Assembly (NCBI GenBank): GCA_021498095.1
Contig: JAIZWK010000001.1
Span: 1,860,001-1,892,000 of the forward strand
Length of the DNA: 32,000 nt
Direction of reading: 5' to 3'
DNA from: Candidatus Harpocratesius repetitus
GTDB taxonomy: Archaea; Asgardarchaeota; Lokiarchaeia; Sigyniarchaeales; Promethearchaeaceae
Part shown: in pieces, positions 13,914 to 17,312 of the stretch
How the letters are laid out: each line of letters begins with the position of its first letter
How positions within the stretch are numbered: position 1 is the stretch's first letter
Notes under the pieces: model-generated
The model's database searches: none
Seen by the model: only the letters and a program-made list of their open reading frames with translations
Told to the model about the DNA's origin: nothing
Translations under genes and position numbers: made by a program

Positions 13914-15308
13914 CTATTTTTCAAATTCTTGAATCTTTGAAATCACATCATTTAACGAGAGATTGGAATTTTGATCTCCTGTAATAAAATTTTTCAAAGT
14001 ATACCTCTTTTGTTCTTGTTCTTTTGGGCCTAAAAACAAAAGAAAAGGTATTTTCATCCGATTAACAAATTTACTTACTGAGCGAAATGAACGATTCATG
14101 ATATCTATTTCCACCCGAATTCCATTTTTACGTAAAATTTTTGCAATTTCAATCCCAAAAGTTTGTGTTTCTGCTTTTGTTCCTATGAAAATTTCTGATC
14201 TTGGTTGTTCTGGTGGAAATTTCTCTTGACGCTCTAATGCAAGAATTATACGATCAAATCCAAAGGAGAAACCTAATGCTGGAGTTTCTTCACCTCCAAA
14301 GGCGCGAATCATTTCATTATAACGACCTCCGCCACAAATTTGTTTTTGCTTTCCTAAAACCGGAACATCAATTTCAAAAACAATATTTGTATAATAATCT
14401 AAACCTCGAGCAATACCGCAGTCTATTACATAATTCTTGATATCTGCTGCTTCAATAAGAGTGCTAACACGCTGAATTTTAGATTTGCTTATTGCTTCGA
14501 GCGTCTTCGGATATTCGCTAAACAGTTGATTTAAACGAGATATTATATCTGCAGATTTCCCAGTCATATATAAAAGTTGCTCCAAGCGTTCAATAATTGC
14601 TTGTGGGATCTTCTCTTCTTGCATCGATCCATAATAATCATTAAGAATGTTTTGTTCTGTCTGTTCTTCGTCCAATGCTCCTATTTCTAATTTTCGGAGC
14701 AGACTTGTGATTCTATCAACTATTCCAAATATCTTTTTTTGCTGTGATGGCGAAAGTTTTTCTTCCTCCAAATATGATCGTAATATGGTTAGATCATTAA
14801 TTCTAAGAATATAATCTTGCATTTCAAACCGTTCCATAACATTCATTGCGACAATTAACATTTCTGCATCTGCTGTGGCTGTATCCGCCCCAAAAATTTC
14901 AATTCCTGCTTGAGTAAATTGTCTAAAACGTCCAGGTGCAGGTTCATCATATCGAAAACACGGACCAATATAGTAGTATTTTTGAGGTTTGGGTCGATAC
15001 ATTAATTCACTTGTGATATAAAACCGCGCTAAAGATGCAGTATATTCAGGACGGAGCGCATAAAGTGCTGGATTTTCATCGGCGCGGTGTTTTGGAGGAT
15101 CATAAAATGTAAAAATATCATTAATGATTTTTTCACCAGATCTTTTTTTATAAATTTCGAAAAACTCATACATTGGCAGTTCAATTTGCTCAAAACCAAA
15201 AGATTGAAAGATTTTTTCAAGTTTGATATAAACTTCTCGTCTTTTCTTCATCTCTTCAGGTAGAAAATCAATAGTACCAGAAGGTCTCTGTAAATTTATT
15301 TTTTCCAT
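13914..15308 (-). CDS. hisS: Histidine--tRNA ligase
   Basis: PSGTIDFLP, LRPEYTASLAR, motif 2 CFRYDEPAPGRFRQFTQAGIE, ARGLDYYT, ICGGGRY, motif 3 PALGFSFGFDRI, C-terminal anticodon-binding domain. Confidence 0.98.
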   Translation of the reverse strand: MEKINLQRPSGTIDFLPEEMKKRREVYIKLEKIFQSFGFEQIELPMYEFFEIYKKRSGEKIINDIFTFYDPPKHRADENPALYALRPEYTASLARFYITSELMYRPKPQKYYYIGPCFRYDEPAPGRFRQFTQAGIEIFGADTATADAEMLIVAMNVMERFEMQDYILRINDLTILRSYLEEEKLSPSQQKKIFGIVDRITSLLRKLEIGALDEEQTEQNILNDYYGSMQEEKIPQAIIERLEQLLYMTGKSADIISRLNQLFSEYPKTLEAISKSKIQRVSTLIEAADIKNYVIDCGIARGLDYYTNIVFEIDVPVLGKQKQICGGGRYNEMIRAFGGEETPALGFSFGFDRIILALERQEKFPPEQPRSEIFIGTKAETQTFGIEIAKILRKNGIRVEIDIMNRSFRSVSKFVNRMKIPFLLFLGPKEQEQKRYTLKNFITGDQNSNLSLNDVISKIQEFEK

Positions 15309-15595
15309 TTCTTTTTCGCTTTGCTCGGCCAGAAGGACTCACCATTAAATTATTTGATTTTTATTCAAGGCTAATATTCAATCAATTCTACTAATATAAC
15401 TTCAGCAATAATATTTTTGCTTTAATCGAGGCTGCTAATTAGAAAAGAATGTGCCATTAACTATCAAAACTTAATTACACCCAAAAACATGATTTTATTT
15501 TTAAAAAGAATATCGAAATATTCTCATCTCTTGATTATGGCAATATAATGATTTGATCTGTAAAAAATTGTCATTGTCATTGTCTCAATTAAGGA

Positions 15596-15683
15596 AATGA
15601 TTTTAAATAGAAAAGCATTGATTTTAACTAGCAAAGTAATGATTTAACTAGAAAAACAATGATTTTAATTAGAATAACAATCA
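15596..15683. repeat. Four degenerate ~21-bp tandem repeats (consensus AATGATTTTAAnTAGAAAAnC) in the hisS / membrane-protein divergent intergenic region
   Basis: Units at 15596-15616, 15617-15637, 15638-15657 and 15658-15678, read directly. Confidence 0.8.
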
Positions 15684-15725
15684 TAAGTGTTAATTGTTAA
15701 TGCAAGAAATTTTAGGTGATTAAAA

Positions 15726-17030
15726 GTGAAAATTATTGAACGAATCCAAGCTTTTGATGTTGTACGCGGTTTTGCGGTAATTTTTATGGTTATTCTTCAT
15801 ACCGGTCTTCATGAATGGCTTGGTGCACAAGAACTTGAAGGTGGGGAACAGCAGGCTGATCCCGTAATGGGCTTCCTTATCTTCTTTTTGACAATCGCAG
15901 GAGTCTATTCTACAATATTAGTGGCTGTTAACAGCTATATGTTTTATCGACGTATAGAATCAGGAAAAAATACTCCTACTCAGCTTACATACTATGGGCT
16001 TTTTCTCGGAATATTTTTAATAGCGCTGAATTTCGTGTTTCGGATATTTTTAAGTGGCGATTCTGGTTGGTTATATTTTTTAGTTAAAAATGGAAATCCC
16101 ACCTTTTCAGAGCCATTTTGGCTTGTAAGTAGTTCCGCTTTAACAATTTTAGGTTTAAATTCTATCTTAGTCCCCCTTATTATGCGAATTCTTAATTCTC
16201 GACTTACAAGTGGATTGAAAAATCGTCAAGTCTATGTTATTCTCTTTTGGATGGGTTCATTAATTTTATTATTAACATTACCTTTCCGTTGGATGGGAGC
16301 TCCTGTAGTTGATTCGTTAATTGATTCTCACCGCTATGTATTAGCATGGATTCTCGGTTGTTTTGTATATGATAATTTTCCTCTATTCCCATTTGTAGCT
16401 TATGCTTGTTTTGGTGCTATTTTAGGTATTGCTTTAGCACGAAAAGAAAAACCTAAATATATTTTAGAGTATACATGGTTTCAAACAATATTTTGGTTCG
16501 GAGTTGGATTTCTTGGAATGTATTCTCTTGGGGGTATTCATCCCGGCTTAATCTATGAAACTTCTCGAATTGCTCTATTGGAAGATTTCTTTAGGCATAT
16601 CACTCAGTTGGGTGTGGTGTTTCTTTTCTTTAGCTTGGCATTATCCATCGTCGATTTCGCACCTCATGATAGAAAAATTCGCCGTATTAAAGGATTTCGT
16701 TTTATTACTCGTTATGGAATGATTTCACTCACAGTATATATTTTTGAGGCGTTTTTTTCTGGGTTAATAACTGGTTTATTAAATTTAATCCCTGCATTTC
16801 ATAATTGGAATGCTTCTCTTATGTGGGTAATTGTATTAGGTGTTGTTTTAGCTGGTTTATGGGGTGTAGCGGCTAAATTCTGGGAGAAAGTGGGATATAA
16901 GTATTCTGTGGAATGGTGGTTAATTTGGATCGCAGGAAAATTTTCGGGAAAAAAGAGTGAGAAATATCAAATGGAACGGATTTCACAGCAAGATTCATCT
17001 AAACTTGCTGAACCTGAAAAAATATCATAA
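15726..17030 (+). CDS. Multi-pass membrane protein, DUF1624 / HGSNAT-like acyltransferase family
   Basis: RIQAFDVVRGFAVIFMVILH N-terminal signature, FPLFPF and SLTVYIF segments, many hydrophobic helices; AGGTGA SD before the GTG start. Confidence 0.8.
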   Translation: MKIIERIQAFDVVRGFAVIFMVILHTGLHEWLGAQELEGGEQQADPVMGFLIFFLTIAGVYSTILVAVNSYMFYRRIESGKNTPTQLTYYGLFLGIFLIALNFVFRIFLSGDSGWLYFLVKNGNPTFSEPFWLVSSSALTILGLNSILVPLIMRILNSRLTSGLKNRQVYVILFWMGSLILLLTLPFRWMGAPVVDSLIDSHRYVLAWILGCFVYDNFPLFPFVAYACFGAILGIALARKEKPKYILEYTWFQTIFWFGVGFLGMYSLGGIHPGLIYETSRIALLEDFFRHITQLGVVFLFFSLALSIVDFAPHDRKIRRIKGFRFITRYGMISLTVYIFEAFFSGLITGLLNLIPAFHNWNASLMWVIVLGVVLAGLWGVAAKFWEKVGYKYSVEWWLIWIAGKFSGKKSEKYQMERISQQDSSKLAEPEKIS

Positions 17031-17212
17031 AATGAAAAATATTTTGTAATTCACTTGTTTATTCTGCAAAAAAGAAGAAAAAGATAACTAGAATCGCACA
17101 GACTGGCCATATTGGAGTTCTGCATCTTTTACACCGATATTAATTTTTAATCAAGAAGGGATTTGAAGATAATGCTAAAAATCCTTATGATGAAGGGAAA
17201 TAAAGAGAGAAG

Positions 17213-17312
17213 TGGCCCGACCCGGAATTGAACCGGGGTTATACGGGTTTAGCTGCTTGAAGATGCATCAAACATCCACAACCGTACCGTCTAGCCACTA
17301 ACATATCGGGCC
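17213..17312 (-). tRNA. tRNA-His(GUG) with 28-nt intron at 37/38 (intron 17248-17275); discriminator A73; CCA not encoded
   Basis: Acceptor GGCCCGA/UCGGGCC, U8, D-loop AGUGGCUA, anticodon stem UACGG/CCGUA, loop UU-GUG-G|C, T-arm CCCGG-UUCAAUU-CCGGG; 72-nt mature body plus intron with bulge-helix-bulge geometry. Confidence 0.93.

Follow-up and report, generated by a model that had tools for sequence, protein, structure and literature searches.

G-1 of tRNA-His is among the most conserved tRNA identity marks. A subgroup of the Alphaproteobacteria is reportedly an exception, a histidyl-tRNA synthetase (HisRS)/tRNA-His pair without G-1 being said to have been described there by Ardell and Andersson in 2006 and by Wang and colleagues in 2007. 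In Escherichia coli HisRS, Gln118 has been assigned to C73 and R123 to G-1, and in eukaryotic HisRS serving A73 the Gln is replaced, by Ala-Met-Thr (PMC10100707); the role of Gln118 as C73 reader and its replacement in eukaryotic enzymes, both put forward in an earlier sequence-only reading of the present locus, are thus found in the literature. Caulobacter HisRS works without G-1 and relies on the anticodon, U72 and A73 (Yuan et al. 2011, PMC3064791), and the enzymes of Trypanosoma brucei and Acanthamoeba castellanii are likewise G-1-independent (Rao and Jackman 2015, PMC4338351). Reviews name only alphaproteobacterial, protist and organellar exceptions to G-1 (PMC9976931). The change from C73 to A73 has been placed in early eukaryotes (Heinemann et al., PMC3245924), and our full-text literature searches found no paper tying Asgard archaea to tRNA-His identity, Thg1 or HisRS.

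Here we describe a HisRS and its tRNA-His from Candidatus Harpocratesius repetitus, a Loki-type Asgard archaeon, encoded close together in the window, by which we mean the whole 32,000-nucleotide stretch of DNA analysed. The parts of the enzyme that read the tRNA end have been rebuilt and the tRNA-His gene has neither the extra G nor C73, so the pair probably uses non-standard recognition rules. On balance we lean towards the reading that this sole HisRS and its linked tRNA-His form a pair with no need of G-1 or C73, and that the change began with the enzyme.

The synthetase and its partner tRNA

The features needed at this point are the following:
13914–15308, minus strand: histidyl-tRNA synthetase (HisRS), 464 amino acids, type A subfamily (open reading frame translation, Pfam, tree)
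14916–14957, minus strand: motif-2 loop of HisRS, FRYDEPAPGRFRQF, residues 118–131 (translation and E. coli alignment)
17213–17312, minus strand: tRNA-His(GUG), Rfam tRNA score 47.6 bits; exon 1 at 17276–17312, intron at 17248–17275, exon 2 at 17213–17247

The HisRS translation (window 13914–15308, minus strand), which includes GPCFRYDEPAPGRFRQFTQAG, carries the class IIa HisRS core (tRNA-synt_His, PF13393, 1e-48, residues 12–354) and a C-terminal HGTP_anticodon domain (PF03129, 4e-12, residues 376–461), the anticodon-binding domain that separates HisRS from HisZ. The motifs LRPEYT, ARGLDYYT and GGGRY are all present, and among solved structures its best matches are 1wu7 and 1qe0 (about 172 bits). 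This gene is the sole HisRS-family locus of the closed 4.36-Mb genome (31% G+C). Retranslation reproduces exactly the motif-2 loop given in the sequence-only reading, DEPAPGRFRQF without Gln and with Ala124 (codon GCA) at 14937–14939. In a HMMER alignment with E. coli HisRS (1kmm), Ala124 lies opposite Gln118, the residue present at this position in canonical G-1:C73-dependent HisRS, and the same alignment pairs R116 with E122, K119 with P125, R121 with R127 and R123 with R129 (E. coli and window HisRS, respectively). Arg127 and Arg129, the equivalents of the arginines that hold the G-1 phosphate (R121/R123 in E. coli, R120/R122 in Thermus), are therefore kept. The loop that the sequence-only reading gives for alphaproteobacterial G-1-independent enzymes, PGPGRFRQF, would be very like the PAPGRFRQF of the window HisRS.

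The A73 tRNA-His that the same reading placed 2 kb from the synthetase is real: it lies on the minus strand, 1.9 kb from HisRS, with anticodon GUG, a G1-C72 pair, A73 (17213), a genomic A at -1 (17313) and no encoded CCA, and is interrupted after position 37 by a 28-nt intron. It was seen only with an E-value-mode Rfam scan or the intron mode of ARAGORN; default ARAGORN and an Rfam gathering scan returned zero tRNAs for the whole window and missed it. A search of the closed genome for a second tRNA-His found none, leaving this one. In intron mode ARAGORN also reported, elsewhere in the genome, a tRNA-SeC and an intron-containing “tRNA-Pyl(CUA)” candidate (calls such as 751326–751433 and 1668826–1668915); as only 36 tRNAs in total were called, many intron-bearing tRNAs were probably missed or misread. 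Between HisRS and tRNA-His lies a 434-aa open reading frame (15726–17030, plus strand) encoding a multi-pass membrane protein with no Pfam match; its presence at this site is shared with the two other same-genus genomes, at 72% and 45% identity, and not with more distant relatives.

Searches of the closed genome for Thg1 and its C-terminal domain (Thg1C) gave no match, with a Methanosarcina control genome matching as expected; they bear on Thg1 and not on an unrelated G-adding activity. The canonical combination of C73 with a G-1 that is either encoded or added by Thg1 is thus absent from this genome, which instead has a tRNA-His gene without G-1 and no Thg1, as do 17 relatives. From this gene content, A73 with no encoded G-1 in a genome without Thg1, the mature tRNA-His is most likely to lack G-1.

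Loop and tRNA-His types in the order and across Asgard archaea

The HisRS of 40 relatives fall into three loop types. Type A, FRYD(E/K)P(A/K/T)(P/K/R)GR, is found in f4 and most of family f1; type B, the canonical form (Y/F)RYE(R/A)PQ(R/K)GR, in families f2 and f3; and type C, FRDGPxKxGRYREF, in two genera of f1. Within the order, the division by loop type cleanly matches the division by tRNA-His type, with f1 and f4 Gln-less, A73 and without encoded G-1, and f2 and f3 carrying PQ, G-1 and C73. All type A and type C genomes read among the relatives within the order have A73 with A or U at -1; a type A HisRS goes with A73 and with a -1 base other than G in G000, G002, G005, G006, G007, G008, G010, G011, G013, G016 and G018. 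Encoded G-1 and C73 were found in fourteen f2/f3 genomes; the HisRS loop of these families reads ERPQ(R/K)GR. No Thg1 was found in 13 f1 and 4 f4 genomes, two more single-contig genomes among them, by a search that matched the Methanosarcina control.

Finding the tRNA partners depended on the query. BLAST with the window tRNA-His gave almost no relatives, and covariance models R1 and R2 ranked other tRNAs over tRNA-His in f3; BLAST with an f3 tRNA-His and model R3 did better. The f4 genome G022 is a single contig, only 63% complete as judged from marker genes; a HisRS was not found in it, and its tRNA-His has A73 and C at -1. This gene (L113, C1:2957300–2957640) shows an apparent T-loop intron followed by a second, alternative-looking 3' half (GGGGGTTTAATTACCCCC CGGGAC A CCA). 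The first pair of tRNA-His, in general a highly conserved G1-C72, is A1-U72 in some close relatives, and both forms occur in the genus of the window (L072, L066, L073, L080, L084). Type C HisRS (G004, G003 and G009; L104, L105 and L106; loop FRDGPxKxGRYREFxQxD) groups with the HisRS of an f18 genome (G079, L254) that carries a Thg1 homologue, which suggests that HisRS was replaced by transfer in the two f1 genera concerned; their tRNA-His is also A73.

Across a sample of 70 Asgard genomes, PQ is kept in nearly all HisRS outside types A and C, and the 151 nearest cluster representatives in an exhaustive search of a 1.84-billion-protein library include 127 that keep the Gln. Both partners could be read in 37 Asgard genomes: 13 are Gln-less with A73, 19 have Gln with C73, five have Gln with A73, and none is Gln-less with C73. 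The tRNA-His of G001, G079, f5, f14 and f19 was not found by R3 or by pattern search, and these lineages were left unscored. Encoded G-1 and C73 go together in f6, f8, f9, f13 and f17. The f12 lineage has a C73 tRNA-His with U at -1 and a Thg1 homologue in the genome, the known archaeal mode of templated G-1 addition; in G064 (L295, L290) the Thg1-like gene lies about 8 kb from tRNA-His on the same contig. Lineages f7 and f16 (tRNA-His at L178, L179, L180 and L256, and at L259) combine A73 with no encoded G-1, and Thg1 was found in none of seven f7 and none of three f16 genomes. Their HisRS, of about 500 aa (L236–L248), retain a PQ loop, FR(D/N)ETPQ(K/R)GR. This looks like a second Asgard solution to working without G-1, possibly an independent one.

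Type A itself is a small subfamily, of about eight clusters at 50% identity in the exhaustive search, distributed mostly in Lokiarchaeia and almost only in Asgard archaea. The window HisRS groups with those of f1, f4 and f24 and with representatives P0002–P0009 in a clade supported at 97–99% in two trees. This clade is nested among Asgard HisRS with PQ and a D(K/R)GGR loop (f5, f6, f12, f19, f20), of which f6 is paired with G-1:C73 and f12 with C73 and Thg1; a position inside Asgard HisRS clade II is not that of an enzyme of alphaproteobacterial descent, and a tRNA-His with G1-C72, or A1-U72 in relatives, does not fit the G1-U72 requirement of that lineage.

Five residues (A, K, T, E and Q) are seen at position 124 across the subfamily, and several members depart from the simple pattern. 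P0009 has a PEPGR loop, with a tRNA-His 32 nt upstream that has A73 and C at -1. P0004, of the f24 type, keeps the Gln (PQPGR) and has the pocket insert described below, with an A73 tRNA-His (A at -1 in G122). The f16 genome G250 carries a type A HisRS beside an A73 tRNA-His with a genomic G at -1. P0007, the first branch of type A, has the insert and a PAPGR loop, yet the tRNA-His 1.3 kb away encodes G-1 and C73; P0007 is known from one metagenomic contig, and a second HisRS or tRNA-His in the same organism is possible. A search for its lineage among 400 Asgard species genomes gave no find. No tRNA was found on the contigs of the sister-group representatives P0010 and P0013, nor on those of P0003, P0005 and P0008.

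In most of the type A loci inspected (window 13914–17312; L351, L352, L370, L387, L072, L071), HisRS is linked to tRNA-His, at spacings of 32 nt (P0009), 0.3–1.9 kb (G006, G005, G002 and the window) and 9.4 kb (G010). Linkage of a synthetase to its own tRNA is unusual and would favour co-inheritance or transfer of the two as a unit. The vicinity of P0007 is a small histidine-related neighbourhood, with elongation factor 1-alpha, a pyruvoyl-type histidine decarboxylase and, adjoining HisRS, a 584-aa gene (L352, 2221–3975) with matches to the HGTP_anticodon domain and HisG.

These pairings bear directly on the proposal of the sequence-only reading that the enzyme is adapted to its A73 tRNA-His, to be checked by setting HisRS alignment and phylogeny against N73 and N-1. 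In its residue-level form, Ala124 would be a specific adaptation letting the motif-2 loop read A73, a single-contact co-adaptation that an A124Q change would shift to C73. The association itself holds in the 37 Asgard genomes, where every one of the 13 Gln-less loops goes with A73 and f1 and f4 separate cleanly from f2 and f3. It also agrees with the reading of C73 by E. coli Q118 and the replacement of the Gln in eukaryotic A73 enzymes (PMC10100707), and with the Gly at the equivalent position of Caulobacter HisRS (PMC4338351). The link is not strict, however: PAPGR beside a C73 tRNA, which that reading had named as the finding that would count against it if common, occurs once, in P0007, where the partner is a G-1:C73 tRNA-His, and is not common. 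PQ loops accompany A73 in f7, f16 and f24 (P0004), and position 124 takes any of five residues while tRNA-His remains A73. Nanoarchaeum equitans HisRS can do without the Gln and charges tRNAs with A73 or C73 to much the same extent (PMC10100707), and in Thermus the Gln contacts the 71–72 backbone and not the C73 base (PMC4357726). Given the variable position, the PQ/A73 pairs and P0007, Ala124 does not qualify as a dedicated A73 adaptation, and we regard the residue-level proposal as quite unlikely. The missing Gln is only a loose marker of altered recognition, and the sequence-only reading passed over a larger point, the lack of both an encoded G-1 and any Thg1 match in this genome.

Rebuilding of the acceptor-end segments

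Alignment of type A HisRS with the nearest Gln-bearing Asgard HisRS reveals three changes, the first being the replacement of the motif-2 Gln by A, K or T. The other two map to the following segments of the window HisRS:
15060–15101, minus strand: pocket-loop replacement DPPKHRADENPALY, residues 70–83, directly before LRPE (alignment)
14625–14714, minus strand: insertion-domain segment, residues 199–228, with a type A-specific insert of about 20 aa (alignment)

In the second change the D(K/R)GGR loop has given way to a Gly-less, acidic and Pro-rich segment that is 7–15 aa longer (7 aa in the window HisRS), and the third is the insert in the insertion domain. The anticodon-binding domain of type A shows only a one-residue difference in the same alignments. 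In the Thermus HisRS–tRNA complex, the pocket for G-1 is made by the 71'RGGR74' loop, Gln and Lys of motif 2 touch tRNA residues 70–72, the Gln through 71–72 backbone atoms, and the helical insertion domain clamps C72-A76 (PMC4357726). The segments altered in type A thus correspond to the Thermus contacts with G-1, C70-C72 and C72-A76.

The Gly-Gly pocket motif was considered as a clean marker of G-1 dependence and rejected, as f3, f9 and f13, all with G-1:C73, are partly without it; the f3 loop reads K(K/E)GE(K/R) and the f13 loop DPWS. With the motif already degenerate in these lineages, its loss by itself is weak evidence, and P0007, a remodelled enzyme beside a G-1:C73 tRNA-His, means that remodelling by itself is no proof of G-1 independence.

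Drift might account for the loop without any functional link: the change would be neutral, in a HisRS lineage that evolves fast, and would occur together with A73 through shared ancestry in one clade. The HisRS tree has only two independent Gln losses (types A and C), too few for a statistical test of the association of loop and A73, and the exceptions to it run in both directions. We nevertheless find drift very improbable, as the Gln is kept in most of the nearest representatives and in the other sampled Asgard HisRS, both Gln-less lineages go with A73, and three acceptor-contacting segments are altered together.

The chief alternative is continued addition of G-1 by an unknown activity. As in eukaryotes, a G-1-dependent HisRS would then be served by a tRNA-His to which a non-Thg1 enzyme adds G-1 opposite A73, or which keeps G-1 through unusual 5' processing, and the loss of the Gln would parallel that in eukaryotes. 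Such a mode would sit well with the retained Arg127 and Arg129, with the resemblance of A73 and the D-x-P-A loop start to eukaryotic pairs (PMC10100707), and with G250, where G stands at -1 opposite A73. Against it, searches for Thg1 and Thg1C gave no match in this genome or in those of 17 relatives, three of the genomes being single-contig; the 23 A73 genes read include 22 with A, U or C at -1, so that keeping the encoded base would not yield G; the G-1 pocket loop is replaced in type A; and the window HisRS is nearer to archaeal and bacterial HisRS than to the human enzyme (172 against 90 bits). We consider it unlikely.

We thus return to a pair that needs neither G-1 nor C73. The elements of type A that hold the acceptor end (motif-2 loop, G-1 pocket loop and insertion domain) would have been remodelled first, and tRNA-His would have drifted afterwards from G-1:C73 to A73 without G-1. 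The enzyme-first order appears to hold on the strength of one metagenomic contig, that of P0007, whose insert and PAPGR loop beside a G-1:C73 tRNA-His fit an enzyme that changed before its tRNA. Ala124 would then mark relaxed constraint where base 73 is no longer read, as opposed to a residue tuned to A73. We predict that tRNA-His is probably chosen by other determinants, the GUG anticodon chief among them, by analogy with the G-1-independent HisRS of Caulobacter, T. brucei and A. castellanii; that the 1:72 pair varies freely between G-C and A-U within one genus is in keeping with an acceptor end of minor importance.

Implications and comparison with known systems

What is new here is the enzyme side: the subfamily, its remodelling and distribution, and the exceptions that limit a residue-level claim for Ala124. 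A wider reading can be entertained, although we would put it somewhat short of even: that several Asgard lineages (the Lokiarchaeial families f1, f4 and f24, and the PQ-keeping f7 and f16) abandoned G-1 and carry eukaryote-type A73, that the A73 of eukaryotes predates them, with G-1 addition by Thg1 layered on later, and that type A is an independent, G-1-independent and orthogonal pair. If so, eukaryotic Thg1-dependent addition of G-1 opposite A73 was built on an Asgard-type A73 tRNA, and type A is an independently arisen archaeal G-1-independent synthetase, produced by enzyme-first remodelling of the G-1 pocket. An independent archaeal system would be a new exception to the G-1 rule, located in the closest prokaryotic relatives of eukaryotes and with a eukaryote-like A73. 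The subfamily would also offer a natural series for studying how a synthetase and its tRNA can alter identity rules without lethal intermediates: PAPGR with G-1:C73 at one end, PQPGR with A73 in the middle, and PAPGR or PKKGR with A73 at the other. Its HisRS/tRNA-His pairs might also serve in orthogonal translation systems, and the existence of cultured relatives makes the question of G-1 directly testable.

The window HisRS shares its fold, domain order, catalytic motifs and motif-2 arginines with canonical HisRS (E. coli, T. thermophilus 4RDX, T. acidophilum 1WU7 and N. equitans). Those enzymes differ in having (E/D)xPQxGR with the Gln and G-1:C73 substrates, and the closest canonical kin in having a short (K/R)GGR pocket loop. 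Eukaryotic cytosolic HisRS is similar in its A73 substrate and replaced Gln; however, eukaryotes need Thg1 and G-1, and Thg1 was not found here, and human HisRS scores only 90 bits. The pairs of T. brucei and A. castellanii share A73, no G-1 (here at the level of the gene), no Thg1 and a Watson-Crick 1:72 pair. Their enzymes are eukaryotic-type and distant (126 bits for T. brucei, 3hri), their motif II is unlike the Caulobacter type, and for them the biochemistry has been demonstrated.

The pair of Caulobacter crescentus also has A73, no encoded G-1 and no Thg1. There too the HisRS is the sole one, divergent and with small inserts, and the equivalent of E. coli Q118 is replaced (by Gly118 in Caulobacter, PMC4338351, and by Ala124 here). 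Specificity in the present pair is a prediction from sequence, its tRNA-His carries an archaeal intron, and its 1:72 pair is G-C or A-U in place of the G1-U72 wobble required in Caulobacter. Unlike the Caulobacter enzyme, type A has its main inserts in the pocket loop and insertion domain, and the window pair is archaeal and nested in Asgard HisRS, an independent origin.
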